Virus record (IMG/VR): IMGVR_UViG_3300033074_001783
Location: 32,001 to 96,000 of that record
Length of the DNA: 64,000 nt
Direction: 5' to 3' (one strand)
Source: a virus
Taxonomy: Duplodnaviria; Caudoviricetes
Positions 3,477 to 63,314 of the stretch are shown one piece after another (positions within the stretch are counted from its first letter, which is position 1; every line of letters begins with the position of its first letter). The position numbers were made by a program, and so were the translations under genes. A model generated the notes under the pieces. That model did no database searches and was not told where the DNA came from. It worked only from the letters and a program-made list of their open reading frames with translations.

Positions 3477-4265
3477 CTAGCCATTTACAAAATGGTCGTG
3501 GATCGCTTTCAACCAATCCGCAGATTGTGGATTTAGTTCAGCTTGAAGAAGATAACCAGATAGAACAGAAAGTAAAATACGAATTGCAGGATAAATGTTG
3601 GCAACCAAAACCATTTTATAAAACAAGCTTTCACACTTCGTTCGCGCGTTGTCCTTGTTGCCAAGATAATCTTGATCCCCAAGAAAAGTTTTGCTTGATT
3701 GGAATCCATGATCCCACAAAGTCTTGTAGATTGACAAAGAAACCACGTCAGTTGGAATCCATGAAACAGCTTTGTTGTTTACAGTTTTCAAAACAGAACA
3801 AGCTAAATTTATTGCATGTTCTAGTTGCACTGCTTTAAAATTGATTGCGATTGGTTTGAATAGTTCAAGTTTTTTATCTAGGTTTTGGGCGGCTCCAAGA
3901 GAAAAACTTGCAACAGTTGGAAACGTTAAAGACTCTTGCTGAAAAGCAACTGCTGTTTGTTTTCTGGCAAACTCTTGGTACTCGGTTAGAGCAGCTTTGG
4001 ACAAAGACACGAGATTGAAAGAGTCCAAATAGGATTGATCAAAAGATATTTTTTCTTTTGTTTTTGTTTCAACCGTTTGTTTTATTTCTTGAACCAACTC
4101 CAGTCTCACGCCAAGTCGGTCATAAAGATTGTTTACTTTGTTAGCAATCAATCTAGCATAGGTTGAAGATTGAAGTTCCGTGGGAGGTGCTTCCCCATAA
4201 TTCAAAACGCTGTAGATATCTTCTTGCAAAGTTTTGTGTACAAGTTTTTCAATGAGTTTTTGCAT
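3477..4265 (-). CDS. Hypothetical protein with LxE leader (candidate internal head protein)
   Basis: Likely start ATG 4265, just after the upstream stop; N-terminus MQKLIEKLVHKTLQE-D. Confidence 0.6.
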   Translation of the reverse strand: MQKLIEKLVHKTLQEDIYSVLNYGEAPPTELQSSTYARLIANKVNNLYDRLGVRLELVQEIKQTVETKTKEKISFDQSYLDSFNLVSLSKAALTEYQEFARKQTAVAFQQESLTFPTVASFSLGAAQNLDKKLELFKPIAINFKAVQLEHAINLACSVLKTVNNKAVSWIPTDVVSLSIYKTLWDHGFQSSKTFLGDQDYLGNKDNARTKCESLFYKMVLVANIYPAIRILLSVLSGYLLQAELNPQSADWLKAIHDHFVNG

Positions 4266-4266
4266 T

Positions 4267-4980
4267 TCAGCCACCACCAAATTTTTCTGGATAAAATTGT
4301 TTGAGGACATTTAGCGTTGTCCCATGATCCAACAACACCACTCGTCCGTCTGCCGTTTTACCCCAATGTTTGATCACCATTACATCCAAAGGAGCAAAAC
4401 TTTCGTCTCCCGAATGAATGGCTTTCATGAATTCTTGAAACGCATTCCATTGTTGGAATTTTTTCATTTCTGCGAAGACTTGCTTAAACCTTTGACTCTT
4501 GGCGACCACCTGTTGAAAAGAAAGTTGATTCTGTACAGTTTCTATTACCACACTTTTCAAAACACCAAACATAAACCCAGAAACGTGTGCGAATTGGCTT
4601 TCATCTGTGAATTGACCAACCAACTCTTCTGTGATCCAAGAGCCATCTTCTGCTGTTTCAAATACTTTTGTTACCAAATTGGGATAAAGAGAAGCATGTT
4701 TTTGTTCTGTTTTGTTTTGTGCTATACCGGCCTGCAAATTATTCACTTTGGCCAGTTTCAAAACTTTGGTACTTGACAAAAGAAACACAACCCTTGAAGT
4801 TCCATCTTGTTCGTTTGAAATCATTTTAAGTGACTTCTTGGCATAGTCGTATTTCTCTTGTTGAGTTGGCAATGATTTAAAAATGTTCCATTGAAACGTT
4901 TCGGATCTTATCTTCTCTTTTAAAACTGATTGAAATTCTTCTTGGATAATGGTTTCAATCAAAAACTCAATCATTGACAT
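4267..4980 (-). CDS. Protein kinase-like protein with LxE leader
   Basis: Motifs in kinase order: GTSRVVF (Gly loop), VLK (beta3 Lys), QNKTE (alphaC Glu), DVMVIKHWG (catalytic loop), VLLDHG (DFG equivalent). Confidence 0.7.
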   Translation of the reverse strand: MSMIEFLIETIIQEEFQSVLKEKIRSETFQWNIFKSLPTQQEKYDYAKKSLKMISNEQDGTSRVVFLLSSTKVLKLAKVNNLQAGIAQNKTEQKHASLYPNLVTKVFETAEDGSWITEELVGQFTDESQFAHVSGFMFGVLKSVVIETVQNQLSFQQVVAKSQRFKQVFAEMKKFQQWNAFQEFMKAIHSGDESFAPLDVMVIKHWGKTADGRVVLLDHGTTLNVLKQFYPEKFGGG

Positions 4981-4997
4981 GTGGTTAAATAGTTCTT

Positions 4998-5675
4998 TCA
5001 GTCGTCGTAACTGAATCTATTGCCTTTACCAGATTCATCAGGTACAAAATGAACCGGCTTTTCTCCCAAGGCTGGTGAAGCCATATCATCTCCAAGCCGC
5101 TCTCTCATTTGCCTTACATCGCCAGTTGGCATGTGTTTGGAATTTTCTGGGAGTCCTCTTTGCTGTTCAAAGTCAATTTCAACACCCGTCTCTTTAGTGC
5201 CATCGTCTTTTGTTGGATTGTAAACTTTGGCTGGATCAAACTCTCCAACGCGGGCAAGTTTACCAATTAGTTTGTAAGCGCTTTCGTACTCCTCTAGCCC
5301 AAAAATATTGTTCATGTTCAAATAAGACACGACTTCAAACACCGCGTCCCCATAGGTAAAGTAATCTCCTTCATTCAGATTCAAACCTTTATCCAATAAA
5401 TCACGAGCTTGGACCAATATTTCTACTTTTGCAGTTGCCTCTCTTCCAAAAATGTTTTGTTTTGTTTCCCAATTTGGCTGTCCTGCCATAACGCTCAAAG
5501 CCACAGGGTTTTCAAACATTTTGTTAACAGCTTCGCCGTACACAGGATCAACCTTGGTGTGTTTGACAGAAATGGCATAATAAAAAATCCTTTGACCTAT
5601 CACGTCTTTTACCAACTCCTTCACCGTGTCGTTGATAAACTGTATTTCCTTTGTGCCTACGAATAATCTTCCCAT
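4998..5675 (-). CDS. Neck / head-closure protein (T4 gp14-like)
   Basis: IGQRIFYY...DPVYGE...F...GD motifs; located between gp13-like and gp15-like genes. Confidence 0.65.
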   Translation of the reverse strand: MGRLFVGTKEIQFINDTVKELVKDVIGQRIFYYAISVKHTKVDPVYGEAVNKMFENPVALSVMAGQPNWETKQNIFGREATAKVEILVQARDLLDKGLNLNEGDYFTYGDAVFEVVSYLNMNNIFGLEEYESAYKLIGKLARVGEFDPAKVYNPTKDDGTKETGVEIDFEQQRGLPENSKHMPTGDVRQMRERLGDDMASPALGEKPVHFVPDESGKGNRFSYDD

Positions 5676-6382
5676 TACAACACCTGTAGGATGGCTTGTG
5701 TCATAGTTTCAACATTTCCATCATTTATTTCATTAGAGGCGCACCATATTACTCTTCTTAGTTTAATTGTCCCAACTGAGATGATCTCTTTCTCTGATTC
5801 AGCGTAGTGCCTTAGTTCTGGTATTTCAGCAATGCCAGCAGGATTCAAAATGAATTTACCTTGGTTGTCTCCTGTTGCAGCAACAAGTAGACAGGCAAAT
5901 TTGCCTTGGTCTACATCCAAAAAACCGCCAGAGTTAAGTGCTTTGGCAAGGTTGACAAGCTTTTCTTTGTCTCCCCACAAAGTCCAAGAGGCATGGGGTC
6001 TTCCTTTGGGGGTAAAAGTGCCAGATTGGGATTGTTCTACATGTTCAAGCGAGAACATACTTTGTCCAGTTATTGTTGACATAACATTTTCATCAACACC
6101 AAACAAAAATCTATACGCGTAAGCATTTGGTGATTTTAAGATGTCTTGGTATTCCCCGCGATTAGCCAAAGCAGCCAAGGATGGGGCATTCATGCCCAAA
6201 GCATCCATATCCCCTATGTGATGTTGTTTTACAACATTGTAAAGGTTTTTTTCAGGTGCGGTATCAACTTCTGGTTTCTTTGGATCTGGTTTTCCTCTTT
6301 CTTGACCAAACAGCACTTGCCCATATGGTCCTTCTTGAAGAACCCCCATAACCATGTTTTCAATCAGTAAATTCAACTTCAT
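5675..6382 (-). CDS. R-S-E clade ADP-ribosyltransferase-like protein with LxE leader
   Basis: AYR (Arg), ASWT (Ser motif) and ESEKEII (ExE) occur in canonical order; leader MKLNLLIENMVMGVLQE-G. Confidence 0.55.
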   Translation of the reverse strand: MKLNLLIENMVMGVLQEGPYGQVLFGQERGKPDPKKPEVDTAPEKNLYNVVKQHHIGDMDALGMNAPSLAALANRGEYQDILKSPNAYAYRFLFGVDENVMSTITGQSMFSLEHVEQSQSGTFTPKGRPHASWTLWGDKEKLVNLAKALNSGGFLDVDQGKFACLLVAATGDNQGKFILNPAGIAEIPELRHYAESEKEIISVGTIKLRRVIWCASNEINDGNVETMTQAILQVL

Positions 6383-6431: not shown

Positions 6432-7322
6432 TCAGTTGTGATCAAGCATTTTGGTCCAACCTTTATATGACCATCTTTGACCTTCAATAACTTGCTGCAA
6501 CTTCCAAGCATCCAAGGCTTGTTCTTCTGAAAATGCTCTCAGGTTGTAAATATTGCGATACAATATACCTGCGGGAGATAACAGGTTCGCTTTTAAAAAC
6601 ATCTTTGATTTTGAAGTTGTTTTGCCGGTGTAATCCAACACTTGTTGGACGCTTGGAATTCTGGCTTCCAGTTTTCGTCTGCGAGTTGTTGCGGTTTTAC
6701 GGTGTGCCAATGGATCAGTACCACCAGTGAGCGTCTGTTTGATTTTTGCTCGCTCTTCTTCGGACATGGAAGCCCAACGACGTTTCCTACATTCTGACAT
6801 TGCCTGTTGGTGTTCTGGTGTTGCCCAAAGAGCCAGGAATTTTTCGCTGGCACGTTTTCGTGCCTCTTCTGTGCCTTGGGCGTCTTTTTGTGCCATAGAA
6901 CGTTTGTTTTTTTGAATTGGATCTGCCCAACTATCTTTGGCAGCTTTGGAACATTTTTGTTGGGTTTCTTCTGGTGTTGAAGAACGATAACCTTCTCTGC
7001 TGATAGCTTCTTTGCGCAAGTTATAACACCGCTGTTGGTTGTCATAATGTTGATCCAAGTAAAGCTGTTCTCGTGCCAAACGTTCTTCTTTGGTTCCTTC
7101 TGTAACTTCCAATATCTCAAACACAAACGCATCTGTTCCACATTTGTTGAAATCATTCAACAAGAAACGATTGCTGTGTTTGTTCATTTCCAATGATTTT
7201 GAATGTTGTTTCCAGCGAGTTTTAAATTCTTTGCAAGATCCAACGTAAATCCTGCCGTTGGTTGTATTGGTGAGTTTGTAGACGCCTGATTTGAGAGAGC
7301 TTCCATCGTAATTGAATTGCAT
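6432..7322 (-). mobile_element. Free-standing GIY-YIG homing endonuclease (Seg-like)
   Basis: SGVYKLTNTTNGRIYVGS...RW..H...F.FEILE...REQ.YLD...YN; basic helical DNA-binding region and C-terminal YKGW; likely start ATG 7322. Confidence 0.88.
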
Positions 7323-7356
7323 GAAAAGAAGTATGTTATGAGAGGGGACGTTTGTC

Positions 7357-8628
7357 TTATCGCATTGATATGGCAATTTGAGGTGGCATTGGCACGTACG
7401 AAAGTTGCTTTACCATCTGTTCCGCTCGGCTGGCTTCTTGTTCTGCAAGTTTGTCATAAGTCAAACTTTCAAGTTTTTCTTTCAAACCTGTCATTAGTTT
7501 TTCTTTGTCTTCACGGGCTTGGCTTACGAGATCATCTCCGTTTAGTTGTATTTCTTTATCGCCAGCAGGAATACCTTTGAATTTACCTCTGATGTTGCCG
7601 AGTAATTCTTTGGATAGAGCCAAGGTATATTGCGCAATCCAATTCCTTGCCCAAGGATTTAATGATTTATAGTCAAGTGTTCCAAATGGTATGTTGGCAG
7701 GATTGGAAGCTCCATAAATTGAATCATCTGTAAAAGAAGATCCATGACCAGAAGCGGAACCCATTGTTCCACTTGCAACAAGAGTGTCTGCTAAAGATGG
7801 CAGAGCTTGTTGTTTGTAACCAACTCTTATCCAAAGTTTATCATTTACTCCTGAAATAATACTTGTTGGAATCGGAAAAACCCGAATGTTTCTACCTGAA
7901 ATTTTGTAGCTGTAATGAGACCTTCTAACTTTTTGGCTCATTTTCAGTTCGCCACCCCTTAAAATGTCTTCAAACACTGGCAACACCTGCAAATGAACCC
8001 CTGCGCCCGCCGCAGCAGAAGCACCCAAACCAACCAATTCTGAGTTTTGCATACCGGCCGTTACCTTACCAGAGAACAGGTAGTTGATGGGTGCAATCTG
8101 AAATACTTCGTAAATTTGCAGTTTCCCTTTTGAGCCCAAGGGTTGTAGATCATACAAAGCGTTACCGCTTCCATCTTTAAGGTCTGTGTAAAGGTTGTAA
8201 TCTTGTTGACCTTGCACCAAGGAAATAGAACCAGAATATGAGTCTTGCACCCCACCAAGACCAATGAATCCAGCATATGCTTCACTCATTCTGTCAAGGA
8301 ATTCAAGATTTTGACGAACGTACATGTTCGTCAAGTTCATGTTGGACGGGTTTAGAGGATTGGTAGTATCAATTGAACCAGTAGTAATTCCAAGCAAAGA
8401 AGCAAGATTGGATTTGGCTTGATATTCAATGATCTGCCCTTGAAACTCTCTTGTAGATGATTCAAAAAAGTTCCAGATGATCTTCTTGGTCAGTTCTACT
8501 CCAAGGATATCTTCTCCCAAAGAACGAAGAACGAATGTAACCATTCTGTCGGCATCAAACTGGAAGATTGGGTCACTGTCCCAAAAACCCCAAGATGTAG
8601 GTCTCAGCGTTTCATTAAAATTTGCCAT
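7357..8628 (-). CDS. Neck / head-tail adaptor protein (T4 gp13-like)
   Basis: LG..ILGVEL at the N-terminus and WIAQYTLALSKELLGNIRGKF...LNGDDL at the C-terminus; true start ATG 8628 (MANFNE), 5 nt after CTAGTTA. Confidence 0.8.
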   Translation of the reverse strand: MANFNETLRPTSWGFWDSDPIFQFDADRMVTFVLRSLGEDILGVELTKKIIWNFFESSTREFQGQIIEYQAKSNLASLLGITTGSIDTTNPLNPSNMNLTNMYVRQNLEFLDRMSEAYAGFIGLGGVQDSYSGSISLVQGQQDYNLYTDLKDGSGNALYDLQPLGSKGKLQIYEVFQIAPINYLFSGKVTAGMQNSELVGLGASAAAGAGVHLQVLPVFEDILRGGELKMSQKVRRSHYSYKISGRNIRVFPIPTSIISGVNDKLWIRVGYKQQALPSLADTLVASGTMGSASGHGSSFTDDSIYGASNPANIPFGTLDYKSLNPWARNWIAQYTLALSKELLGNIRGKFKGIPAGDKEIQLNGDDLVSQAREDKEKLMTGLKEKLESLTYDKLAEQEASRAEQMVKQLSYVPMPPQIAISMR

Positions 8629-8746
8629 GTCCGTAACTAGACCTCTGGCAGATAACCTTACGACACGTAGGAGAATGTGCAGATTGTTGAATTGTTTGAG
8701 AAGAAGAGATTGATTAAGAACTGCGCAAATGAATCTGAAGATTCTC

Positions 8747-9478
8747 TCAGAAAGAGCATAAATCCAACACTTTAACATCCACCCAACAGGTTTCTGGATG
8801 ATCAGCCGTGTCAACCTTGATGATGTCGTTTGGTTGAGAAGGATCAAGCACAACTTGAAACCTGTCACAAAGCACACCGACAACTCCTCCTGTTTGTTCA
8901 ATGAACGGCTCACCCTTGACAAACACAGGACGATACTGCCTTGTGTGTTCAAGAATTGTTCTTGTGTCATAGTTCACAGTGATCCTGTTTTCACTGAATC
9001 TCATGGTCCGTTTGTGAATGAGGTTACCCGCGTTGAAGATAACTTCCACCAACGTTTCATACCAATCTTGAACAGTTCCTTCAAATGAAAGTCCTGTTTT
9101 CTCAAAACCAGTTTCTACGTCAACAAACTTGCCGGGTGCTCTTGACCAGAAACGTGTGCCAAGGAAACCTTCGGGCTCTTGAACAGGAGTTGCTTCATCG
9201 GAGTAATCAAACCCTTTGATCTCACATGACTGCCAAGGTATGTTTTTGTATTCTTCATATCTAGCTTGTAGTTCTTTGTCCAAACGAATATCATCTTTGT
9301 TGTTGTTTGGTACATCAGGGCACGATTGCAAAGGTTGTTCTTTGCACTCAACTCGTTTGAAGTTCTCGTCATACGCAAACAGTCGGTCAGGTTCTTTGCT
9401 CCAAACTGGCGTTGGATAGAAACTGATGGTTTCGGATTTTCGCCAAGGCCCTTCAATTATTGTCATGCCACACAGCAT
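8747..9478 (-). CDS. Protein carrying a diverged copy of the C-terminal (A-domain) segment of the major capsid protein
   Basis: FWSRAPGKFV, QDWYETLVEVI, IHKRTMR, TILEHT..YR and DP..P align collinearly with the MCP at 11070-13013; start at 9478 or 9466. Confidence 0.8.
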   Translation of the reverse strand: MLCGMTIIEGPWRKSETISFYPTPVWSKEPDRLFAYDENFKRVECKEQPLQSCPDVPNNNKDDIRLDKELQARYEEYKNIPWQSCEIKGFDYSDEATPVQEPEGFLGTRFWSRAPGKFVDVETGFEKTGLSFEGTVQDWYETLVEVIFNAGNLIHKRTMRFSENRITVNYDTRTILEHTRQYRPVFVKGEPFIEQTGGVVGVLCDRFQVVLDPSQPNDIIKVDTADHPETCWVDVKVLDLCSF

Positions 9479-9484
9479 AGTACA

Positions 9485-10285
9485 TCACCCGTTGTATTGA
9501 CTGACATATTTTGGTGGCACTTTCCCATAAATGATGACCGTGTTCGGATCTATACCCTCTTCAACATCAAAGTGCATGTCTTCTATTCCAAGAGTGTGAG
9601 CCAAAGACATTTTCATGTCATATTCCACAACATCTGGTTCTTGACTGACCCTTGGCATGTAACCATCTGTTTTCATGGCATTGGTATCAATCACAACAAT
9701 TCCGCCACTTCCACCATAGTTGTAGCTTTGAGCCACACTTTCTTCTGTTGTTGCAAACACTGCTGCACCAACACCTGTATTTGTCATGCCTCTTGTGTCA
9801 TTTTTCGGAAGAATTCCGACAGACAATACGCCTTGTAGGTCATTTGTTCCGTGTAACAAATTCACAGGTCTTTCCCAAAACTCTTTATTAAATTGCTCGT
9901 CTGGATCACTCAAAGTATATTCAGACTCATGTCCATACGAAATAACTTTGTCCAACCATTTAGCCGCTCCAATTCGTTCATAACCATCTTCACCTGATGG
10001 AACATAAAGGAAATGATTGATTTTTCTATAGTCATCTCCTTCCCAACTGGAGTAGATTGTCTCCTCTGGAAAATCAATTCTTTTGAAGTGAATATTTGGA
10101 TTTTTTGAATGTTCTAGTTGGCTTAGTTTTACAAGAGCTTCATAGGATGGTATTTCATCATAGTTGGCTACAAACCAATCATTCATGATGCCTTTGTAGG
10201 CTTGTTCCATTGGAATAACCATCACATCTTCTGGCAACTCAACGGCTTCAAACAGAAGATTTGTCAATAACGAACGTTTGGTCAT
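9485..10285 (-). CDS. H-clade ADP-ribosyltransferase-fold protein with LxE leader
   Basis: LLHGT...GILP...VFATT...AQSY...IVVID...VPPKYV resembles ART/Tpt1-like NAD-binding folds; leader MTKRSLLTNLLFE-A. Confidence 0.6.
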   Translation of the reverse strand: MTKRSLLTNLLFEAVELPEDVMVIPMEQAYKGIMNDWFVANYDEIPSYEALVKLSQLEHSKNPNIHFKRIDFPEETIYSSWEGDDYRKINHFLYVPSGEDGYERIGAAKWLDKVISYGHESEYTLSDPDEQFNKEFWERPVNLLHGTNDLQGVLSVGILPKNDTRGMTNTGVGAAVFATTEESVAQSYNYGGSGGIVVIDTNAMKTDGYMPRVSQEPDVVEYDMKMSLAHTLGIEDMHFDVEEGIDPNTVIIYGKVPPKYVSQYNG

Positions 10286-10293: not shown

Positions 10294-10956
10294 TTAACTA
10301 GCAAGTTTCCACCCACCACAAGATGTTTTGGTTTTGCCAGATACCATGAGGTGCATTGCTTTATAGTTGAATCCTCTCTCCATGCACCATTTACGAAGAC
10401 TGGATGACAGGACAACCTTTTCACCTGTTAAGTTGTTAATGAGGTTATAGGTGGGAAACTTTGTGTTGTTCCACCGTTTGTTGGCGTCTTCTGCTGCTTG
10501 TTCGCGGAGAGCAGGATCTTGCCACGCTTGTTTGTTTGCTTGACCAATTGCTGCTTTGTGTTGCTCGTCATGTGGTTGGCAGCGTTTGTCGGTGAGAGGA
10601 TTGCAAGGTTCATTTTGTTTCTTGCCTTTACGTGTATCGCAAACGTCTGGTCGTAAATTGTAACAGCGTGTTTGTTTATCGTACCAAAGGTTCAGATAAA
10701 ACTGTTCTCGTAAGAGTCTCTGTTTTGAATCTTGCACAACCTCAAGAATTTCAATGATGAAATCTTCCGGTTTACATTTATTGAAATCGTTTTGCAGAAA
10801 TGTGTTTGCATGTCGTTGTTTCAACAGCGAATCAAGATGTTGAGGAAATCGTTTCTTAAAACGGTAGGTTGAACCAATGTAAAACCTACCGTTGGTTGTG
10901 TTGGTAAGTTTGTAGACGCCACCCTCGTTGCCAAACGAAGCATAAATGAATTTCAT
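10294..10956 (-). mobile_element. Free-standing GIY-YIG homing endonuclease
   Basis: GGVYKLTNTTNGRFYIGS...REQFYL...CYNL; paralog of 6432-7322; lies just downstream of the MCP terminator. Confidence 0.88.
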
Positions 10957-11069: not shown

Positions 11070-13013
11070 CTATATGATGCCCATGTCAAGGATGGTGATT
11101 GTTGCGTAGAAGTCCGCACGAACCATCTTCTTGCCGTAGCGAGTCATCACACCCTTGCGAGGTGTAAAGTCCTCTTGGGCATAGATGACAGGGGTGAGGA
11201 TCAGAGGCACGTAAGGTGCGTAGATGTAACCTGTCTCAAGGAAGGTGTTACCCTTCAAACCGATGAGGATTTTGTTGGTTGGGAAGTAAGGATCCTTGTA
11301 AACCACATAGCGGTTGTTAAGAGTTCCTGTTGCTTCTGCACCGACTGTCATTCCTTCTTTTGTCTGACCATCAGCGTCAATCTTGTAATTGGCTCTGTAG
11401 GCTGTTGTGTGTTCAAGAATTGTACACACGTCAGGAGATGTGATCAGGAAGTTACCTGCTCCGCGCAATGTCTTCTTGTGGATGACGTTTGCAGCGTCGC
11501 TGATGGTCTCCAAAAGTGTCTGATACCACTGTTGAATGTCACCTGTGAATGCAGGGCCGGGTGAGAGTGTTCCCTGACGAGTTCCCTCTGTACCTGTCCA
11601 CTTGTTCACGAAACGACCGGGAGCTCTTGACCAGAAGTAGTTCGCAGCAGCCGCTTGGGTAAGCAAGTCGCTAAGAATCTCGCGGTCAATGTCCAAAGTA
11701 ACCATTTCGCTAAGGATGTTTGTCAGTTCTGCCTCAATGTCAATTGAGTAGAAGGCTGTCAAATCCTGTGCCATTTCAGGCGACCAGCGTGCTCTCAACT
11801 TGCGTGAAGTTGCTGTTACGGCCACTGATTCAATCTTGATGTCCACTTCAGGAATCTTGGGACTTGAGTCCAAAGCGAAGTCAGTTTCAAATGAAGGAAT
11901 CATCAGTGTGCTTCCGTCGTTGTTGACTGACAACGCATCTGAAATCACAGTTGAAGCTGTGAGAGCATGAGTTGTCGCATCACCAAGTGTAGGAGCGTTT
12001 CCTGTGTTGCTCAAGGCAACCAAGAACTGAACGTGTGATCCACCAAGAGCATCGGGTGTAAACAAACCTGTGATTGGGTTAAACGAACCACGCTTTGTCT
12101 TGGTACGGAGGTTCATCACCCCTGTGCCACCTTGATAGTTTGTACCCCAAGTTGTTGCACCACCGGGAGTTCCACCAAGACCAGTAATGGCGATTGCGTG
12201 GAGTGTCTCAAGGTCTGCACCAGCGATTTTGCTTGTGAGCTCTGAAGCTGACATGTGCACGAAGCAGAAGTCCAACACGTTGTTCGCAAGATCGTTTTCA
12301 ATTTGTGAATCAAAATCAGCGAAGCGTGCGTTATAGCCAACGAAATCTGCTGTGCTTTGCACTGTGGCGGTTGTTCCGGTTGTCCACACTGAACCTGATG
12401 ACCAGAAACCAACTGAGTCGGTTGGGGCAATCAAGTTAAGGGCTTGCTTGTGTACCTTTGTGAAGGTTGAACCACCAAGACCGTAGTGCCCACCTGTTGC
12501 CAATGAGCTTGAACGAATGTTCGCGCCTGTTGGAAGGTTGTACACTGACTGGCCACGAGTATATGTCTCATTGGCAGAACTTGTTGAAAGTGAAAGACCA
12601 GCGTCTCCACCAACGTTTGAACCATAAGTGTAGTCCAGATAGAAGAGCAGACCCGCAGGCAAGCTCATAGGCTGTACTGAAACCACTTCGTTCGCAATAA
12701 GGCCCGCGAAGACCTTACGCACGATTGGGAATGCGACGTTTGTGAAACCGGCAATTTGACCAGAAGAAGCCAGACCGGCTCCACCTGTTGAAATGCCGTT
12801 TGCCTCTTGAAGAACTTCACGAGCGCTTGGCCCGCGAAGAAGTTCTACCGCTTGGTTTTCAAGCAGTTTTGCCATCTTGTCTCGGTTGATTCCTGAAAGT
12901 CCTTGCAAAAGACCTGTTTCGGCCCACTTAGCCGTCATGCGGGCTGTGTCATGACCGAGCCCGCGTCGGCTCACGCCTTCCGCAAGTTGGTTTAGTGTGA
13001 ATTGTCTCGCCAT
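11070..13013 (-). CDS. Major capsid protein (T4 gp23-like)
   Basis: LLENQ, PIVRKVF...VSVQPMSLPAGLLFYLD, RKLRARWSPEMAQDL..., YAPYVPL, FTPRKGVMTRYG; AGGGAG RBS. Confidence 0.96.
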   Translation of the reverse strand: MARQFTLNQLAEGVSRRGLGHDTARMTAKWAETGLLQGLSGINRDKMAKLLENQAVELLRGPSAREVLQEANGISTGGAGLASSGQIAGFTNVAFPIVRKVFAGLIANEVVSVQPMSLPAGLLFYLDYTYGSNVGGDAGLSLSTSSANETYTRGQSVYNLPTGANIRSSSLATGGHYGLGGSTFTKVHKQALNLIAPTDSVGFWSSGSVWTTGTTATVQSTADFVGYNARFADFDSQIENDLANNVLDFCFVHMSASELTSKIAGADLETLHAIAITGLGGTPGGATTWGTNYQGGTGVMNLRTKTKRGSFNPITGLFTPDALGGSHVQFLVALSNTGNAPTLGDATTHALTASTVISDALSVNNDGSTLMIPSFETDFALDSSPKIPEVDIKIESVAVTATSRKLRARWSPEMAQDLTAFYSIDIEAELTNILSEMVTLDIDREILSDLLTQAAAANYFWSRAPGRFVNKWTGTEGTRQGTLSPGPAFTGDIQQWYQTLLETISDAANVIHKKTLRGAGNFLITSPDVCTILEHTTAYRANYKIDADGQTKEGMTVGAEATGTLNNRYVVYKDPYFPTNKILIGLKGNTFLETGYIYAPYVPLILTPVIYAQEDFTPRKGVMTRYGKKMVRADFYATITILDMGII

Positions 13014-13049: not shown

Positions 13050-15134
13050 CTAGACTTTGCTAGCGCTAATTCCTGCCAAACGCATCCAACGTTCTCTTGT
13101 TGGAGCGTATTCTTTATTTTCTGTTACGTTTGTGCTCTCATTCAAAGGAGCGCTTCCTGATTTCACTGTTGTAGAAGATGAACCAGAGGTTGTGACCTTC
13201 TTTGGTGAACGGTGCTCGTCAAGAACTTTCTTTACACGAGAATAAACTTCTTTCGCTTCCGCGAATGTTGAAGCCTCATCCATGTAACCAGTGATTTTCT
13301 TTTTCTGGTTTACAGACAAAGACTCAAGAGCAAGTAGTTTGTTCAAGTACAATGACTTGGCTGCAAGCAGTTTCATCTCTTGCAATTCTCTTTTTGTGTT
13401 GCGAAGTTGAACAGATTCCTTCACAACTGGTTTGCGTGATTCTGCAACAGGAGGTGAAATCTCTTCTTCCTCTTCATCATCGGCCAAAGGAGAACCATCG
13501 TCGTTGGTGATTTCATATTCCTCGTCACCATCTGGTTCACTGTGAGCTCCACCAAAATCATCGCCCTCTTCGTCAGAAGGTAAAGATGAAGCCATCGCGG
13601 GTTCAACAGGGTTGCTAACGCTTACGCCGCCGTTGCTGTCAACCTTGATGGTAACAGTAACACCACCATCACTACCTGCACCAAGCTCTTCTGCTTGCAT
13701 ACCGCACTCTTTGAGAGCTTTTGCGGCTTCTTTCAATGCCTTCAGTTTTGCAGCAAACTTTTTCTTTGCTTCCATTACAGCAACCGCGTTGGTGTTTACG
13801 GGTTTGCCGGGTGTCACTTTGTCCATGCCATCTGTCACTTTGTCGCCAAGGATTTCAGCGGCTTCGCCCATTGCTGGCTCTGACTCTTCGCTGTCCCCAA
13901 ACATTTCGCGAAGTTCTGCTTCAAGTTGCATGGCTTCTATGTCTTCTTCAAGATACCCAGAAGCGCCACCAACTTTAAGTGAATCTTCTTTGCCGGGATC
14001 TTTAATGTTTGATTCAGATGCTTTCATCGCGTGTTTGCCAGCGGCATTCTCGGTGTCAAGCTCTGCATCACCTTTTGGTTTCTCGGTACTATCACCGAAA
14101 CCAGCGCTACCTTTTGTTGGAGGTGCATTTTCAAAAAGACCTCTTGCAAATTTTCTCAAGTTTTCGCTACTCATTTTGTTCGTGTCCTTGTTCTTCGGAT
14201 ACGGATAACTATTGGTGTTTTCCGTAGATTCCTGAAGTTGTCTGTATAAACCTTCAAGACGATTTTCTTGAAGGCGTCCAAGTCGTTGAGGCACAAGTTT
14301 ATTTTCAACAAGTTTTTCCAATTTCCCCAACAAACCAAAGAGGTGTTGTTCCATTGCAAATTTTTGCATTTTTGTTGGTTTGGAGTTCAACAAAATATGA
14401 CTCTGTGTTCGTTTGACGGATTCCTTGAAATCTTCGTATGTAATTGCCTCTGTTTGTGTGTCTTCTTCCCCAAAAGGAGGCATGGAAGCATCTGTGTCTT
14501 CCCCTGTGGCCACAACGGGTGCAGGGGTTTCAGATGGGAATCCTCCAATTGGAGTTGTTGGTTCAGTTGGTTCTCCAACCCCCACGCCACCCGTCAAGAC
14601 AGGTTCTTGCCCTGTTGCACTCATTTGTGTCCAAAGGTCATCAAGAGAAACTACAATTTGTCCCGAAGCGTCTGGCAATGGAACGCTGCCAAGGCTTGCT
14701 GATGGAACACTGATTGGAGCTCCGGGGCCTTCAATGGAGGGGGCGCCAATGTTGGCAGGCATACCAGCCTCGGGCGCAACTGGACCGGGAGCAGGAGGCA
14801 CCGCTGGTGGTGGAGCGGGAGGCATTGCTTCTGGTGTGGGCACCGCGGAAGGGGTAGGAGCAGGCGCAGGAGGAGGAACAGCGGGTGGAGAACCCGGAGG
14901 TGCAGCAGCAGGAGGAGGAGCCGAGGCATCTCCTGTCACGTCCGCAAAAGGATCTTCTTCCTCCTGCAAATCATTCATCCCTTCTGTGAGATTGCTAAGG
15001 CTTTGGTTCAATTCTTTTTCAATCAAAGGTGTTATGGCTTCAATGATTGCATTTTTCGCTTGATGAAACGCTGCTTCCTTGTAGCGACCAACTTCTACAA
15101 GTGCTTCATCGTAAAGAGGACTGGAGTTATTCAT
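13050..15134 (-). CDS. Prohead core scaffolding protein (T4 gp22-like)
   Basis: Directly upstream of MCP; acidic, Pro-rich and coiled-coil; many LxE/VxE sites; C-terminal RWMRLAGI. Confidence 0.75.
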   Translation of the reverse strand: MNNSSPLYDEALVEVGRYKEAAFHQAKNAIIEAITPLIEKELNQSLSNLTEGMNDLQEEEDPFADVTGDASAPPPAAAPPGSPPAVPPPAPAPTPSAVPTPEAMPPAPPPAVPPAPGPVAPEAGMPANIGAPSIEGPGAPISVPSASLGSVPLPDASGQIVVSLDDLWTQMSATGQEPVLTGGVGVGEPTEPTTPIGGFPSETPAPVVATGEDTDASMPPFGEEDTQTEAITYEDFKESVKRTQSHILLNSKPTKMQKFAMEQHLFGLLGKLEKLVENKLVPQRLGRLQENRLEGLYRQLQESTENTNSYPYPKNKDTNKMSSENLRKFARGLFENAPPTKGSAGFGDSTEKPKGDAELDTENAAGKHAMKASESNIKDPGKEDSLKVGGASGYLEEDIEAMQLEAELREMFGDSEESEPAMGEAAEILGDKVTDGMDKVTPGKPVNTNAVAVMEAKKKFAAKLKALKEAAKALKECGMQAEELGAGSDGGVTVTIKVDSNGGVSVSNPVEPAMASSLPSDEEGDDFGGAHSEPDGDEEYEITNDDGSPLADDEEEEEISPPVAESRKPVVKESVQLRNTKRELQEMKLLAAKSLYLNKLLALESLSVNQKKKITGYMDEASTFAEAKEVYSRVKKVLDEHRSPKKVTTSGSSSTTVKSGSAPLNESTNVTENKEYAPTRERWMRLAGISASKV

Positions 15135-15672: not shown

Positions 15673-16008
15673 TCAACCGGGAAACACGGGCATGACACGA
15701 GGTTGAGTGTTGAAAGCCAAGGCTGCCCAACGATTGCCAATGGCGGGCTTCATTTGCTGTTGTTGAATGGGCATTTGCATTTGCTGCATCATGGACATTT
15801 GTGGGTCTGGTTCAGAATTCATCAACGTTTCTGCCAGAACGTTTTCCATCAGTTGATTGCCACCAGCCAACGATTGAATCCTATTTTGTGCCATAGGATT
15901 TATCATCATTTGTTGCTGTGGCATTTGTGAGTTTAAAGCACCTTCAGTGATTAACTCTTTCAAACATTCTTTAATGACACTTTTCAATTCAGAGCGAGTG
16001 ATTTTCAT
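15673..16008 (-). CDS. Small prohead core-like protein with LxE leader
   Basis: MKITRSELKSVIKECLKELITE-G followed by Q/M-rich low complexity; overlaps the protease stop. Confidence 0.6.
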   Translation of the reverse strand: MKITRSELKSVIKECLKELITEGALNSQMPQQQMMINPMAQNRIQSLAGGNQLMENVLAETLMNSEPDPQMSMMQQMQMPIQQQQMKPAIGNRWAALAFNTQPRVMPVFPG

Positions 16009-16625
16009 TTTAGTTTTGCACCACTTCCAAGTATTTCATTCAAAACACGATCTACTCTATCTGATTTTTTGAAGATTTGTTTCAAAATTGTTGGATCAAT
16101 TTGTTTTGCTTCTGACAAGCGCATGAATGCTCCGTGTGTTGAAGGTTCAGATACAAAATCCCAACAAATTATCTGCAAGTCATCTTGGACAACATCTGTT
16201 CCATTTTTCTTTTGGACAGAACCAAGAGCTCTTGATGAAATACCCGGAACACCACCTGTTTTCAAAATAGTTTGGATGATGCCACCCGATGTTGGAGCAG
16301 GCATCACCAACACTTTTCCATAAATGTCTGCCCCCTTGGCCCAAATGTCCAAAATACGGTGAGAAGCATTTTTTACGTTAACAATTGGAGTATCGCTGTG
16401 GTCAACCTCTCCAAAAGCTCTGTTTTCTCTGATGAGTTTTTTGTAGTTTTCTATTTCACGCATCAAAATTTCATAAGGATACACACGACCATTTTGGTTT
16501 TCTGCATCTGCTCTCTGAAGAATGCCTTTCACAATCATTGCACCATCTTCACGAGTTTCCATCGTGTCATGGTCATATTCAAATGCCCTGTACTCTTTCA
16601 ACAGATATACTGGTTTTTCGTTCAT
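16005..16625 (-). CDS. Prohead core protease (T4 gp21-like)
   Basis: NQNGRVYP, GEVDH, GISSRALGS, DFVSEPSTHGA. Confidence 0.93.
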   Translation of the reverse strand: MNEKPVYLLKEYRAFEYDHDTMETREDGAMIVKGILQRADAENQNGRVYPYEILMREIENYKKLIRENRAFGEVDHSDTPIVNVKNASHRILDIWAKGADIYGKVLVMPAPTSGGIIQTILKTGGVPGISSRALGSVQKKNGTDVVQDDLQIICWDFVSEPSTHGAFMRLSEAKQIDPTILKQIFKKSDRVDRVLNEILGSGAKLK

Positions 16626-17440: not shown

Positions 17441-19417
17441 TTAAATAGTGCCTTGGTGCATTGCATCTTTCAACAAGTCCAAAAGCACCAACTCATCATC
17501 TGGTTCTTCATTTTCATGTAAGATTTCAATGTCCAACATCATTTTGTTGTTCTTTTGTGATTTTTCAAATCTCTGCAACTTTGAAATTAAATTACGACCA
17601 AGACTCTCTGGTATTCCAGACTTCTTAACTCTGCCATCGCGATAAGATTCACGCTTCAAAAATCCATCTTCTTCCAAGTTCATATCCAACATTTTTCTAA
17701 AATCAACGAGGTTGAATGTTGAACCATCACGTTTTTTATTTGTGTTTCGTGAAGGAGACATGTTGGGATTGATTGGAACCTTGGAACCAATTGATGAATT
17801 TGCAGATTTAATCTGTTCTGATTCCTCAGAAGGCAAAGGAGACGGCCTTGGAGCAATCTGCGGATTGTTTGTGGCGGGTGGCTGTTGATTGCTGCTGCTG
17901 TTTGGTGTTTTGTTTTTTGTGTTTGGTATTTGATAATTGGACGCATCAAACACGTCCACCAAAGAACTGGACGTATCTTCTCCATTTTCATTCTTTGGGG
18001 GCTCCAATGCCTCAAGTGTTTTCTTTCTTAAAGCATCTTTCTCGCGACCAAGACGTATCTTGTTGATTGTGTCCATTCTGAATCCAAGAATTTCTTTTTG
18101 AATCCACTCTTCATCAACCAACTCAGAATCTTTGGCTTTGGAAGCGTTTTCAAAACGAAGCGTCCAGATGTTAAGCTTTTGTTGCAACGCAATGGTGCTT
18201 GGATTGGAAAGCTTCAATTCAAAATCTTGAAGATCTTCTCCATCAAAGCCTTTTGCATACAAATGCAAAACTGCAAGTTGATTTAACTCTGCAATGATGA
18301 TCTTCTGAAGGTTAGTGATGGTTCTTGAAAAACGAATATCTTCTTGAGATAAAGTTGCTTTGGAAGACAAACCATCTTCATAACCAAGATACGCTCTCGG
18401 AACTTTTAGTGCCGCCGTGAGTTTCTTTTGAATATATTCAACATCTTCTATCGCACTTACGTGTTGACCACCAGCAAGCGAATCAATTTTGGTCGCGCTG
18501 TTTGGTCTTGTTGGAAGGAAGTAATCCTCAAGAACATCAATTGGGTTGTGTCTTTCATCGGATCTTCCTGTTAAACGATCTATTGAAGTGTTTGTTCTAA
18601 TCGCTTGCTTGGCCTGTTCCATGTAGTTTGGAACATCGTTTGGGTGAATACCAGAAACGTCAATATAAAAAACCCTTCTTTCAGGAGATCTTACAAGGCG
18701 ATAAACCAACATGGCGTCTTCCAACATGACCAGTTGACGCCAGATTTTCCTTGACGATTCAAGAAAAGATGTACCATACGGAATGAAAATGTCGTTGCTT
18801 ACGACTCTGAAATGCAGCACTTGCCAATTTTCAAGATATTTGCCCGCACCACCTGTTGTGAGTTTGAACCTGACAGCATAAGGATCTTCTGGATCATATC
18901 CCTCTTGTCTTTCAATGTCGGTTATCTTGATCGTCTCAACAAGTGAAACGCCCACATCGGGCATTACCTCTACGTGCAAAAACGTGTCTCCATACTTAAC
19001 CAAGTTACGAATCCATCTCCGCAACTCAAAGTCAACATTGCAAACATCATAAAACAACTCTTCAAGAGCACGTTGAATGTCTGTGTTGTCTGAAAACACA
19101 TGAAAACAACGACCGTTTTCATCTCCCGAACATGATTCATCTGCAAACAGATCTAGGGCAGTTGATATTGCCCCTTCATATTCCATCTCTGCGTATTCTC
19201 TGTATCTTACTTCTCGGTCAATTGCAGCATATGCACCAAGCATATTGAAAGGCGTGCCACCCTTACCTCCATAAAAACTTTGACCTGTTTGATGAATGCT
19301 TTGAGCATTCGTTAACTCTTGATTCAGGTTTTGGTTTTTAATTTTTCTTCTTAAAGCAGGACCAGAACGAAAAATTCTGTTTAATCGCTGATAAAAATTC
19401 TCATTTGCTGTGTTCAT
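17441..19417 (-). CDS. Portal protein (T4 gp20-like)
   Basis: LEDAMLVYRLVRSPERRVFYIDV, EDYFLP, KKLTAALKVPRAYL, EDIRFSR. Confidence 0.95.
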   Translation of the reverse strand: MNTANENFYQRLNRIFRSGPALRRKIKNQNLNQELTNAQSIHQTGQSFYGGKGGTPFNMLGAYAAIDREVRYREYAEMEYEGAISTALDLFADESCSGDENGRCFHVFSDNTDIQRALEELFYDVCNVDFELRRWIRNLVKYGDTFLHVEVMPDVGVSLVETIKITDIERQEGYDPEDPYAVRFKLTTGGAGKYLENWQVLHFRVVSNDIFIPYGTSFLESSRKIWRQLVMLEDAMLVYRLVRSPERRVFYIDVSGIHPNDVPNYMEQAKQAIRTNTSIDRLTGRSDERHNPIDVLEDYFLPTRPNSATKIDSLAGGQHVSAIEDVEYIQKKLTAALKVPRAYLGYEDGLSSKATLSQEDIRFSRTITNLQKIIIAELNQLAVLHLYAKGFDGEDLQDFELKLSNPSTIALQQKLNIWTLRFENASKAKDSELVDEEWIQKEILGFRMDTINKIRLGREKDALRKKTLEALEPPKNENGEDTSSSLVDVFDASNYQIPNTKNKTPNSSSNQQPPATNNPQIAPRPSPLPSEESEQIKSANSSIGSKVPINPNMSPSRNTNKKRDGSTFNLVDFRKMLDMNLEEDGFLKRESYRDGRVKKSGIPESLGRNLISKLQRFEKSQKNNKMMLDIEILHENEEPDDELVLLDLLKDAMHQGTI

Positions 19418-19439
19418 GCGGGTTTAACTAGCCCGCATG
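19415..19439 (-). promoter_or_regulatory. Hairpin enclosing the portal ATG, with the putative late-promoter motif in its loop
   Basis: CATGCGGG-CTAGTTAAA-CCCGCATG, a perfect 8-bp stem. Confidence 0.65.
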
Positions 19440-20032: not shown

Positions 20033-20359
20033 ATGCTGTCAGAAAATTTGAAACAAAAGATCGTAGAAGTCGCCCGATACATCGGTAGCGACTGCACAGA
20101 TTGGGTTCAAATAAAAAACCAGATTTTGCACTGTATTGAAAACGAAGAAAGAGATTTGTTTTCAAGAAGACACCCAAGAACAAAAAAACACTTTGTTAAC
20201 GATCATGACCAAGCAGTGATTGAATTCTGGGAGAAAGTCACGGGAGTGCGTCCATTCATTCAAGATGGACGTTCTCATGACTCCAATTGGGTCTACAAAC
20301 CAAAAGGTTGGGCATTGTTTGAATACAACAGAAAGAGATCCAAAAATGAAAAAACTTGA
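20033..20359 (+). CDS. Hypothetical protein
   Basis: 108-aa ORF, first gene of the plus-strand island; ATATTTA 8 nt upstream. Confidence 0.6.
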   Translation: MLSENLKQKIVEVARYIGSDCTDWVQIKNQILHCIENEERDLFSRRHPRTKKHFVNDHDQAVIEFWEKVTGVRPFIQDGRSHDSNWVYKPKGWALFEYNRKRSKNEKT

Positions 20360-43971: not shown

Positions 43972-44019
43972 ACTTGCAGATTAAGTAGTTTCTGACAAAT
44001 AAGGCAGAAGTTTAGGGAA

Positions 44020-61267: not shown

Positions 61268-62811
61268 TATTCTATCACCTTAAAAGAAAACCCTTGATTT
61301 AATATCAAATAATCACGATTATTTTCACGGATTAAAAATTCCAACTCATACATTTGATTTATCTCTAGATCTTCCATGTGCATGTCAAAGTACATACCTT
61401 CGCCATCGCTTGAAAGTTTTGTTCCGTTGTAAACGGTATCAAACGGAATTGCTATTTGTTGACTATACGGCACTTTCAACCTCCAGTGCATGTTGGCATA
61501 CACTTCTGAGGCTAATTCTACTGGTATCATGTTGTGTCGTAAATCTGTGTTAAAATCTTGAACAAAAACACGAAATCTGACTATCTCGTTTTTAGAATAT
61601 TGGTATTTCAAATTTATGATATTCATCATAAAATTTCGTTCCGCAACATTGCTTGCCGTTCCAATCATTTTTTTGATTGTCAGATAACTTGCAGAAGTAA
61701 ACGTAACCGTGCGATCAAGTGATTGCCACAAAGGCAAAAAACTGGCCTTTTCATCATTCGCAAGAAACGATTTAAGGTAATCTGAATTTGAATCAAGACT
61801 GAATGTGGCGTAGTAAATGCCTTCCTGTTCTCTGGAGCCAGTGAAGGAACTTGAAAAATAAACAAAAGAAGATGAGTAATAGGTCACATTCGCTTTGTGC
61901 GTATCGCTATAACTCGTTGTCAACACGTTTATGCTTTTAGAACCAACCAGTGTTAGCATCAAAGGAGAAGAGCCTGACATCGGAAAACTTCCAGAATAGA
62001 AATCTTCGTTTGTTCCGAATGGACGATTGAAAATATAAATTTTGTTCTGTCTGTTGAAATAGGCATTTAAAGATGTGTCTGTCGTGCTGTCATCAAAATG
62101 CAAATCTATTCTCGGATGAGTTAAATGATCTCTGGTGTGTCTTGTTGAAAAACGTTTTACAAAATAAGTTGTTTCATTTTCTTCCTCAGATGGCGTGTAA
62201 GAAAGCCTGAAACCGTAATCTGGAATTACTCCAGCAACCACTCCAGATACCAGAGTTGTCACATCCATACAGAGGTTTTCGTCTCCTCTTGCAAAGCTCT
62301 GTGTAACCCACAGTGGAACACTACCAATAGAAGGAGAGAGAGTACCAGAAACATAGTAATCCAAATCACTTGTTCCAAGCGTGCCGGATGCCATAACCCC
62401 ACCAGACGCCCAAAGATTGCCCACCGAAGAAGACAACCAATTGGTTGCATCAATATCCCTGTAGCCAATTACATCTATTCCTCTCCCTTCTTGGAAACTT
62501 CTTGCAAGAGGCGCAAGAGAGAGGGTATAGTTTGATGGAACAGGGTGACCCGAATAAATGTCAGACAAACGTAAAAAACATTTAAAATTTGGTTGTGTTA
62601 AATTAGAAGAAGAAATAGAAGACAAGTCAAATTTTAATAAACCCCTGCTTATCTCAACGGGCGCTACCGTGCCGGATAGAAACGTTTCATCAAACAGTTT
62701 ATATAAATCCAATGTACCAGCTTGCCCTGTGTTGGAATCATACACACGACTGCCTTGTACTATTTTTGATGTGACATAAGCGTCTTGAATGCACGGTAGA
62801 ATTCTTCTCAT
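61267..62811 (-). CDS. Virion structural protein
   Basis: DAYV, SRGLLKFDL, F.EGRG, GFRL, F.TRH...P pattern of beta-sandwich baseplate proteins. Confidence 0.5.
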   Translation of the reverse strand: MRRILPCIQDAYVTSKIVQGSRVYDSNTGQAGTLDLYKLFDETFLSGTVAPVEISRGLLKFDLSSISSSNLTQPNFKCFLRLSDIYSGHPVPSNYTLSLAPLARSFQEGRGIDVIGYRDIDATNWLSSSVGNLWASGGVMASGTLGTSDLDYYVSGTLSPSIGSVPLWVTQSFARGDENLCMDVTTLVSGVVAGVIPDYGFRLSYTPSEEENETTYFVKRFSTRHTRDHLTHPRIDLHFDDSTTDTSLNAYFNRQNKIYIFNRPFGTNEDFYSGSFPMSGSSPLMLTLVGSKSINVLTTSYSDTHKANVTYYSSSFVYFSSSFTGSREQEGIYYATFSLDSNSDYLKSFLANDEKASFLPLWQSLDRTVTFTSASYLTIKKMIGTASNVAERNFMMNIINLKYQYSKNEIVRFRVFVQDFNTDLRHNMIPVELASEVYANMHWRLKVPYSQQIAIPFDTVYNGTKLSSDGEGMYFDMHMEDLEINQMYELEFLIRENNRDYLILNQGFSFKVIE

Positions 62812-62819
62812 GATACCCT

Positions 62820-63314
62820 TTATTTTTCTGCCACGAGACCCAAAGCTCTGTATGCGGCGCCGAGGTTGTCTCTTACTTTTGCAGCCATACTTTGTGCTTT
62901 TGGCGCATTGGTAGCCTCTCTAGCAATAAGATCATATATGTTTACCAAACCTTCAATAATTTGACCGTGACCAATTCTTTGGTCAAAGAATTTTGGTTCA
63001 TTGATTTTTGCGGCACCTTTGATGATCATTTGATTACCAACTTTCAACCCCAAGATCAAATGATCATTCCGTGTTGTTGGAGTTGGTTTTGGCTCAGATG
63101 GTTTTGCTGTCTCTTTCCAAGAAGGAGAGCCAATCCTTGTTGCAGGCGTAGGCGCAGGTTGTGTGGGAGCAGGACTTGGTGTTTGTCCCAATTTTGATCC
63201 GTCTGTTGGTTGGTTTTTACGACCAGTTATCTTGTCCCAAAAACCAGCTTCTTCCAACTCTTGTTCTTCTTCTGTAACGAGTTGTTCTAAAAGTAGAAAT
63301 TCTTGTATTTGCAT
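62820..63314 (-). CDS. Hypothetical protein with LxE leader
   Basis: MQIQEFLLLEQLVTEEEQELEE-AGFWD, followed by a Pro/Thr linker; ATACTTA 5 nt upstream. Confidence 0.6.
   Translation of the reverse strand: MQIQEFLLLEQLVTEEEQELEEAGFWDKITGRKNQPTDGSKLGQTPSPAPTQPAPTPATRIGSPSWKETAKPSEPKPTPTTRNDHLILGLKVGNQMIIKGAAKINEPKFFDQRIGHGQIIEGLVNIYDLIAREATNAPKAQSMAAKVRDNLGAAYRALGLVAEK

Follow-up and report, generated by a model that had tools for sequence, protein, structure and literature searches.

To our knowledge, the one capsid-targeting tag to have been worked out is still, after decades, that of phage T4, which serves four cargo proteins. In T4, the internal proteins (IPs) IPI, IPII and IPIII and the ADP-ribosyltransferase (ART) Alt carry capsid-targeting sequences (CTSs), which are Leu/Ile-x-Glu propeptides processed by the gp21 protease; ten N-terminal residues are enough for head targeting, processing is governed by residues 8 and 10, and the CTS has been proposed as a general loading route for varied proteins in T4-like phages (PMC9026906; PMC3012670). 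In phiKZ, 201phi2-1 and SPN3US, many inner-body or ejection proteins, paralogous families included, reside in the head and have redundant x-Glu propeptides that are removed at maturation (PMC9026906; PMC5694885; PMC10052503). ARTs encoded beside the head genes of myoviruses have also been predicted, from gene neighbourhood, to be head-packaged (PMC9503650). The present analysis concerns a 64,000-nt stretch of viral DNA, hereafter the window (bases 32001-96000 of one 118,963-bp contig, IMG/VR record IMGVR_UViG_3300033074_001783), which encodes a gp21-family protease, a gp23-type capsid protein and a series of otherwise unrelated proteins that begin with a similar short leader. From sequences, structure models and analogy with T4, we consider it reasonably probable that these leaders are T4-type capsid-targeting propeptides, and that they would serve a cargo larger and enzymatically richer than that of T4.

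The window carries on its minus strand a T4-type head module made of the portal, a 269-residue open reading frame (ORF), the protease, two small ORFs, a scaffold-like protein and the capsid protein. Coordinates given below are those of the window, minus strand unless stated otherwise. The prohead maturation protease (16005-16625) belongs to the gp21 family (Peptidase_S77; Pfam PF03420, E = 3.3e-24) and is 30% identical to T4 gp21 over 158 residues (E = 4e-20); the His and Ser-Ser-Arg motifs of the two proteins align. The major capsid protein (11070-13013), assigned by tblastn to the gp23-type capsid proteins and matching T4 gp23 with a BLASTP E value of 1e-24, has an N-terminal propeptide of about 71 residues ending in VLQE|A. 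This site, at residues 68-71, falls in the pairwise alignment within about 6 residues of the T4 gp23 cleavage site (E65|A). Between the protease and capsid genes lies the scaffold-like protein of 694 residues (13050-15134), the gp22 equivalent by position, which has a syntenic 700-residue ORF in a 41.8-kb relative (L001) and found no match in family searches; it holds 16 [LI]-x-E sites, twice the genome density. A preliminary description of this DNA, made from its sequence, had pointed to such sites in both head proteins, and they are indeed there.

The leader is an amphipathic N-terminal helix of 13-30 residues that ends in hydrophobic-x-Glu. It is carried by 11 otherwise unrelated families comprising 17 proteins, of which 14 are encoded in the window, and every ORF and N terminus listed in the preliminary description is present where it was placed. 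Beyond the window, further leader-like ORFs are found at genome positions 24629, 25124, 27319 and 110290. The mature parts of the leader proteins have no cross-family similarity in Pfam or PHROGs. A plain L-x-E is too common to mean much, as [LI]-x-E alone is expected within 25 residues in about one protein of five, and three tests were therefore run, based on pattern counts, on a leave-one-out position-specific scoring matrix (PSSM) and on regional distribution. Within the first 25 residues of 152 ORFs, a heptad-like pattern (two hydrophobic residues, any two, two hydrophobic, any one, then Glu) occurs 12 times versus 2.0 expected from internal positions (P = 1e-6), and [LI]-x-E occurs 80 times versus 38.8 expected (P = 4e-9). 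The PSSM was anchored on the proposed cut and applied with one family left out at a time, 135 other N-termini and 529 internal 45-residue segments serving as controls; it replaced a hidden Markov model built from paralog leaders only, which had ranked the other leaders high with non-significant E-values. Six of the 11 families (4267, 5675, 15673, 37097-41595, 62820 and genome 25124-25882) outscore all controls of both kinds, and the 3477 family falls in the top 2%. As for distribution, leaders are present in 15 of the 61 ORFs of the minus-strand structural block and are missing from all 51 ORFs of an early-like, plus-strand block of small genes that occupies the first 24.5 kb of the contig (P = 5e-5, or P = 0.003 when families are counted). 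Taken together, these tests establish the shared leader in a core set of about seven families (13 proteins) and leave it uncertain in the other four. The initial proposal of a leader common to some 14 ORFs thus holds for that core, and is statistically weak for the other four leaders. The GroEL-type chaperonin, the R2K ATP-grasp protein and the SbcCD fusion, which had been put forward as leader-less proteins, are confirmed by Pfam and do lack the leader, as does the intein-bearing large terminase, also confirmed by Pfam; the protein labelled a primase in the same comparison has no Pfam match.

In the two families that were modelled with AlphaFold2 (AF2), the GNAT-like and the kinase-like, the leader is separable from the fold. 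Each model consists of a confident domain and a detached leader helix of low confidence, and the minimum of the predicted local distance difference test (pLDDT) coincides with the proposed cut, at residues 17-20 and 20-25, respectively. The boundary is also what homologs tend to keep. In the GNAT-like family, the leader is retained in most of 25 homologs from IMG/VR viral contigs, and across 26 sequences taken from other contigs neither its Glu nor the Ala at the second position after it varies, whereas the remaining leader drifts. Most members of the kinase-like family have a hydrophobic-x-Glu leader end. The sole homolog of the 5675-6382 protein (P0029) has a diverged leader, an L-x-E|G boundary that is kept and a strongly conserved mature N terminus, and the L001 homolog of the 15673-16008 protein retains both the leader and the I-x-E|G boundary. 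Among ART-like proteins, a similar short hydrophobic-x-Glu start was found in 6 of 16 inspected homologs, and it is absent from Arg-rich homologs of high-GC type.

Separability is most clearly apparent from a pair of genes that is fused in one genome and split in the other. In L001, a single 518-residue ORF (L001:11627-13183) joins the kinase-like domain in frame to a homolog of the protein encoded at 3477-4265, with I-x-E|D where the two meet. The pair is split in the window (3477-4980), where about 60 extra nt supply the stop codon of the first gene, a coupled ATG and a new consensus-type leader, which runs into the same x-Glu|Asp site as the L001 joint. The product of the second gene (3477-4265) is a 262-residue protein with a 15-residue leader and no assignable fold, translationally coupled to the kinase-like gene. 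Its start had been placed at 4265, and there is an ATG at this position, one base past the TGA stop of the kinase-like gene and behind a GGTGGTGG run. The arrangement suggests that a gene was split (or two were fused) and that a leader cassette moved in the process.

Comparison with T4, whose N-termini were read from NC_000866, reveals a similar organization. The T4 proteins IPII/IPIII, IPI, Alt, gp67, gp68, gp22, gp24 and gp21 begin with short helices that end in Leu/Ile-x-Glu followed by Ala, Ser, Asp or Thr, and gp23 has such a site at residue 65. The leaders of the present phage resemble the N-termini of Alt, gp68 and gp22, and when the leader PSSM was run on 98 T4 ORFs, gp68 ranked 4th, Alt 5th and alt.-1 7th. 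Both phages thus have a gp21-family protease, Leu/Ile-x-Glu propeptides on unrelated proteins, a capsid propeptide that ends in the same motif and, among the cargo, an ART or ART-like protein (PMC9026906; PMC3012670). They differ in that the leaders here are longer (13-30 residues versus 7-19 in T4), degenerate rather than near-identical, and often hold two or three nested x-Glu sites. Known from sequence alone, they are found on about 11 families (17 proteins), versus four proteins in T4, and the predicted cargo adds proteins of GNAT-like and kinase-like fold, is mostly not basic, and has an ART-like member of the Tpt1/PARP clade in place of the Alt/VIP2 R-S-E clade of T4. Relative to the phiKZ-type systems, one difference lies in the cleavage site, since their gp21-related protease cuts at Ser/Ala-x-Glu, with a small P3 residue, whereas P3 is hydrophobic here and in T4. 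Further differences are that the capsid protein of the present phage is of gp23 type and that its paralogs have an enzyme fold.

The placement of a short motif bears on when the leader genes might be expressed. TAnTTA had been described ahead of several of these genes, and seven leader genes do have it at most 20 nt upstream. In all, 15 of its 72 occurrences lie no more than 20 nt upstream of a start on the same strand, compared with about one predicted by the fraction of sequence that such positions make up, the motif being biased toward intergenic DNA because it contains stop codons; seven of the 15 are those before leader genes, and the rest precede the genes for the portal, the tail tube and other structural proteins. 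The longer form CTANTTAA is not more abundant than in shuffled sequences (6 versus 6.08) and is non-random only in its placement relative to gene starts, as all six exact sites (4985-4992, 10294-10301, 17441-17448, 19424-19431, 25329-25336 and 43981-43988) are located 4-12 nt upstream of a same-strand start, three of them overlapping the stop of the preceding gene. It is a candidate late promoter, which would generate very short 5' leaders, and the placement of TAnTTA fits with co-expression of the leader genes and the virion genes.

The largest leader family consists of seven tandem paralogs (37097-41595) with 33-41% mutual identity (alignment A1), all of which have the leader. The array is headed by paralog 1 (40954-41595), with a TATTTA motif 6 nt upstream, and continues with paralogs 2 (40340-40963), 3 (39702-40343), 4 (39077-39754), 5 (38427-39080), 6 (37780-38430) and 7 (37097-37783); the start of paralog 4 is uncertain, since using the TTG at 39754 creates a 53-nt overlap with the upstream gene. 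The AF2 model of paralog 7 (pLDDT 87.7) has a leader with pLDDT of about 50 over residues 1-22, and a domain with values above 90 from residue 25. Nearly all among the Foldseek matches listed are GNATs (E = 0.03-0.25). VIA-align gave Z scores of up to 7.5 over the Foldseek candidates and, when run against 48,161 chains, a top 50 made up essentially of GNAT-superfamily members (Z = 5.2-7.4, 100-124 residues aligned); as these scores are below the caution line of 8 for this tool, the GNAT fold proposed in the preliminary description is called with moderate confidence. The pyrophosphate-binding loop of GNATs, Gln/Arg-x-x-Gly-x-Gly/Ala between beta4 and alpha3, was also sought. An invariant Gly-Tyr-Gly-Pro occurs at the corresponding junction of the model, between the strand at 96-104 and the helix at 109-119, where GNATs bind the pyrophosphate of coenzyme A, and Ala replaces the leading Gln/Arg. 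AcrVA5 and the toxins AtaT, TacT and KacT, which are small GNATs acting in phage-host conflict, are among the structural matches (Z = 5.8-6.4), but they tie with dozens of other GNATs at 8-17% identity and no specific relationship was found. Of 10 viral contigs with the GNAT-like family, four also encode an S77 protease, and most of the remaining six are fragments 19-44% complete; a single contig rated complete (314 kb) has a GNAT-like homolog without the leader and no S77 match. The GNAT-like domain is also found mid-protein in ORFs of 1009-1229 residues in three IMG/VR contigs (L029, L030 and L031), the N-termini of which resemble nucleotidyltransferases and the product of window ORF 19444-19980.

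The protein encoded at 4267-4980, described at the outset as kinase-like, has a 22-residue leader and a model (pLDDT 84.7, falling below 50 at residues 20-25) that supports a bilobal, protein-kinase-like fold. Foldseek returned 13 PDB matches at E ≤ 1e-3 with probabilities of 0.99-1.0, all of kinase-like fold and including MTR kinase, APH(2''), PRPK/Bud32, Rio1, OSR1 and PknB. In 15 sequences of the family, K75, E92, D199, D218 and G220 are invariant, which corresponds to the Lys, Glu, Asp and Asp-x-Gly of kinases at the expected spacing; the Gly-rich loop is canonical in relatives and degenerate in the copy of the window. Profile matches below threshold are mostly to kinases (AceK, PAK4-7), besides one designed-repeat artefact, and the catalytic loop aligned to that of AceK at E = 0.047, short of significance. 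The match to phrog_4301, a family of unknown function, is the sole Pfam or PHROGs match among all leader proteins. The substrate may be a protein or a small molecule.

The third enzyme-like family is represented by the protein encoded at 9485-10285, which has a short leader of 13 residues and has at least 534 homologs. It had been described as an ART of the H clade, and homologs support, at profile level, its classification as probably ART-like within the Tpt1/KptA-PARP clade. The protein itself has no Pfam match; 50 homologs compared with Pfam gave PTS_2-RNA 15 times (best E = 1.7e-5), PARP seven times (2.3e-6) and Tox-ART-HYD1 once, the family profile matches structures of Tpt1 (E = 0.002-0.01) in alignments limited to the His-Gly-Thr strand, and ESM Atlas yielded weak PARP and Tpt1 leads. 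H145, in His-Gly-Thr, and E216 are invariant in 50 sequences, and Y188 is near-invariant. The C-terminal 140 or so residues also terminate giant multidomain proteins of up to 5313 residues, a feature shared with the predicted head-packaged ARTs, MuF fusions and polyvalent proteins described by Iyer, Burroughs, Aravind and co-workers, as is the idea of myovirus heads loaded with ARTs and other modifying enzymes. The difference is that loading here would rely on a short cleavable leader borne by separate small genes, not on fusion to MuF, portal or polyvalent proteins. A second ART, of the R-S-E type, had been proposed for the 235-residue protein encoded at 5675-6382, which has a 17-residue leader and a leave-one-out PSSM score of 8.0, above all controls. 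This assignment was not supported: hhalign against T4 Alt gave a probability of 0.2%, a PDB profile search returned nothing at E ≤ 10, there is no Pfam or PHROG match, and the Atlas model is poor and has no ART neighbour. The Arg, Ser-x-Thr and Glu-x-Glu of this protein are kept in its one homolog, which is not diagnostic at 50% identity. Thus, of the four enzyme classes initially suggested, three find support at the level of fold or profile and the R-S-E ART does not.

Other leader proteins have no assignable fold; these are the products of 3477-4265, 15673-16008, 20346-21344 and 62820-63314, together with three or four beyond the window. The gene at 15673-16008 encodes a Gln/Met-rich protein of 111 residues, with a 22-residue leader and a leave-one-out PSSM score of 13.2, above all controls; by its position it is likely a component of the prohead core, similar to gp67 or gp68. 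The 164-residue protein encoded at 62820-63314 has a very acidic 22-residue leader (PSSM score 8.3, also above all controls), a Pro/Thr-rich linker and a basic C-terminal domain, with a mature pI of 9.9, and its gene has a TACTTA motif 6 nt upstream. These two proteins look structural rather than enzymatic. The third, encoded at 20346-21344 on the plus strand and hence outside the minus-strand structural block, is a helical protein of 332 residues with a 19-residue leader and no family match in Pfam or PHROGs.

The premises on which packaging had first been proposed are borne out, namely a gp21-family protease, a site at the end of the capsid propeptide near that of T4 gp23, and modular, T4-like leaders confined to the structural block. 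In the mechanism that we favour, the leader-bearing proteins would be made late in infection, together with the head proteins, and the short amphipathic helix would dock them into the prohead scaffolding core. The gp21-family protease would cut after hydrophobic-x-Glu at the end of the leader, as in the capsid propeptide and the scaffold, and the mature proteins, kept inside the head, would accompany the DNA into the host. The cargo would comprise seven diverged paralogs of GNAT fold, a kinase-like protein and its separately encoded partner domain, an ART-like protein of the Tpt1/PARP clade, and several proteins without an assigned fold, some of which are probably core or structural components. 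The phage would thus probably deliver an enzyme kit along with its DNA.

Several observations weigh against this mechanism. In the leave-one-out test, three leaders (9485, genome 24629 and genome 110290) do not rise above background (10-20%), and that at 20346 is intermediate (PSSM score 6.1), with a higher-scoring internal window in the same protein, so that four leaders, the last of them in part, are not separable from background. The leader PSSM does not pick out T4 IPI-III, gp22 or gp24 (IPII/IPIII rank about 28th-34th of 98), and this mixed ranking makes the likeness to the T4 CTS partial, one of type rather than of sequence. The mature leader proteins are mostly acidic or neutral (pI 4.4-9.9), in contrast to the basic nature ascribed to T4 IPs (PMC9026906). 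Several leader genes are located in tail or baseplate neighbourhoods or on the opposite strand (62820; genome 24629/25124; 20346). A kinase-like homolog with a leader-like N terminus (P0042, in the 243.7-kb Logan contig L006) is encoded among many small early-like ORFs, not structural genes, indicating that this family is not always found in a late-looking neighbourhood. No cargo protein itself reaches the Pfam threshold, the similarity to GNATs is moderate, and genome-wide leader counts are incomplete because the contig is a fragment.

The main rival explanation grants that the leader targets the prohead and is cut, and proposes that most of its bearers are assembly or inner-body parts, such as gp67/gp68-like helpers, DNA-organising filler or families like those of the phiKZ inner body, which would be degraded, expelled or inert. 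It would account for the low-complexity protein encoded at 15673-16008, between the protease and the scaffold, and for the products of 62820-63314 and genome 25124, which are rich in linkers and without evidence of an enzyme-like fold. Paralogous expansions of processed head proteins are also known in phiKZ and SPN3US (PMC9026906; PMC5694885), the GNAT match does not exceed Z = 7.5, and enzyme activity is a prediction. We nevertheless regard this explanation as unlikely for the set as a whole, as the catalytic residues of the kinase-like family, the His and Glu of the ART-like family and the Gly-x-Gly loop at the presumed cofactor position of the GNAT-like family are invariant, and the Tyr of the ART-like family nearly so, a degree of conservation that would be unexpected for filler proteins.

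Alternatively, the N-terminal helix could be a module unrelated to the head, in which x-Glu is incidental. It might serve as a tag for another phage factor, such as the GroEL-type chaperonin, the R2K ATP-grasp ligase or a modifying enzyme, or as an oligomerisation or membrane helix. The chaperonin and the ATP-grasp enzyme are encoded close to the head genes, and the N terminus of T4 gp23 has been reported to target GroEL (PMC3012670). Such a role is quite improbable, however, given that, in distant homologs, no leader positions are better conserved than the Glu and the small residue that follows, the pattern expected of a cut site, and that the capsid propeptide ends in the same motif; a gene for a radical-SAM enzyme, a conceivable modifying partner, was looked for in the contig, itself a fragment, and none was found; furthermore, the leaders are mostly net acidic and have too little hydrophobicity for membrane insertion. 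That the set, selected by eye, reflects chance or composition is very improbable. Met-Lys plus helix starts are indeed common, as is L-x-E to the extent noted above, and four of the 11 leaders do not pass the leave-one-out test; but six families outscore all controls, and composition does not explain the 0/51 versus 15/61 split, the conservation in homologs or the fused/split pair.

A bolder version of the capsid-targeting hypothesis can be formulated, which we hold as tentative and rather doubtful. In it, a single degenerate, cleavable leader would bring enzymes of three chemistries (acyl, phosphoryl and ADP-ribosyl transfer) into the head, and seconds after injection, ahead of any phage gene expression, these would act on proteins of the host or of its defences. 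The GNAT array might then be an arms-race panel, with one host target per paralog, and represent a packaged counterpart of AcrVA5-like anti-defence. Cargo would be recruited by way of a leader cassette of about 60 nt, a route that the split kinase/partner pair suggests.

The phage probably belongs to a jumbo lineage of the T4 superfamily. CheckV puts the completeness of the contig at 32%, so that it probably represents only part of a much larger phage. Contigs with GNAT-like homologs, 70-140 kb long, have completeness ratings of 19-44%, and their genomes would accordingly measure roughly 300-370 kb. Near-identical DNA is present in metagenomes from wastewater, freshwater and river; two small sequencing runs of 2025 contain the entire window, and no RNA run is listed among those with this DNA. 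In a phage isolate collection, the head module has no DNA match, and the kinase-like and GNAT-like proteins have no tblastn match. The portal gene (17441-19417; phrog_213, E = 1.2e-61) has CTAGTTAA just upstream. An intein that has a LAGLIDADG domain interrupts the large terminase gene (27183-30164), the product of which has an N-terminal domain of T4 type. A gp13-type neck protein (7360-8637) is 74% identical to a 419-residue L001 ORF carrying PF26809, and the listed 537-residue ORF at 7357-8970 is an N-terminal overextension of it. ORF 8747-9478 and its 314-residue L001 counterpart resemble part of the major capsid protein (tblastn at 8759-9166 and 11289-11783); as it is kept in L001, this ORF need not be a stray duplicate, and a short gp24-like vertex paralog is a possibility. 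Two ORFs that resemble homing endonucleases of the GIY-YIG type (6432-7376 and 10294-10956), identified by their likeness to a GIY-YIG ORF of L001, flank head genes, a placement that recalls segD beside T4 gene 23. In T4 itself, the leader PSSM ranked the uncharacterised alt.-3 (L003:27743-28033) first of the 98 ORFs; it adjoins alt, and its product begins with a helix that ends in V-x-E|G.

We know of no virion in which packaged proteins of acetyltransferase or kinase fold have been shown. The CTS concept is already in print for T4, as are the predicted packaging of ARTs (PMC9503650) and the processed paralogous head-internal families of phiKZ-like phages (PMC9026906). What is new is the predicted cargo, with its array of GNAT-fold proteins, its kinase-like member and an ART-like protein of the Tpt1/PARP clade that would replace the Alt-type ART, and a fused/split gene pair in which a leader appears to have been supplied to a newly separated gene. 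If the proposed mechanism is correct, distant T4-superfamily phages of freshwater and wastewater would apply the logic of T4 to a much larger and enzymatically richer cargo, and the fused/split pair would be natural evidence for how new cargo is recruited. It would also allow injected proteins of uncultured phages to be predicted from a simple sequence rule, offer other leaders to protein-delivery platforms of the T4 type, which vaccine and vector work already employs, and yield a set of candidate immediate-early modifiers of host or defence proteins.

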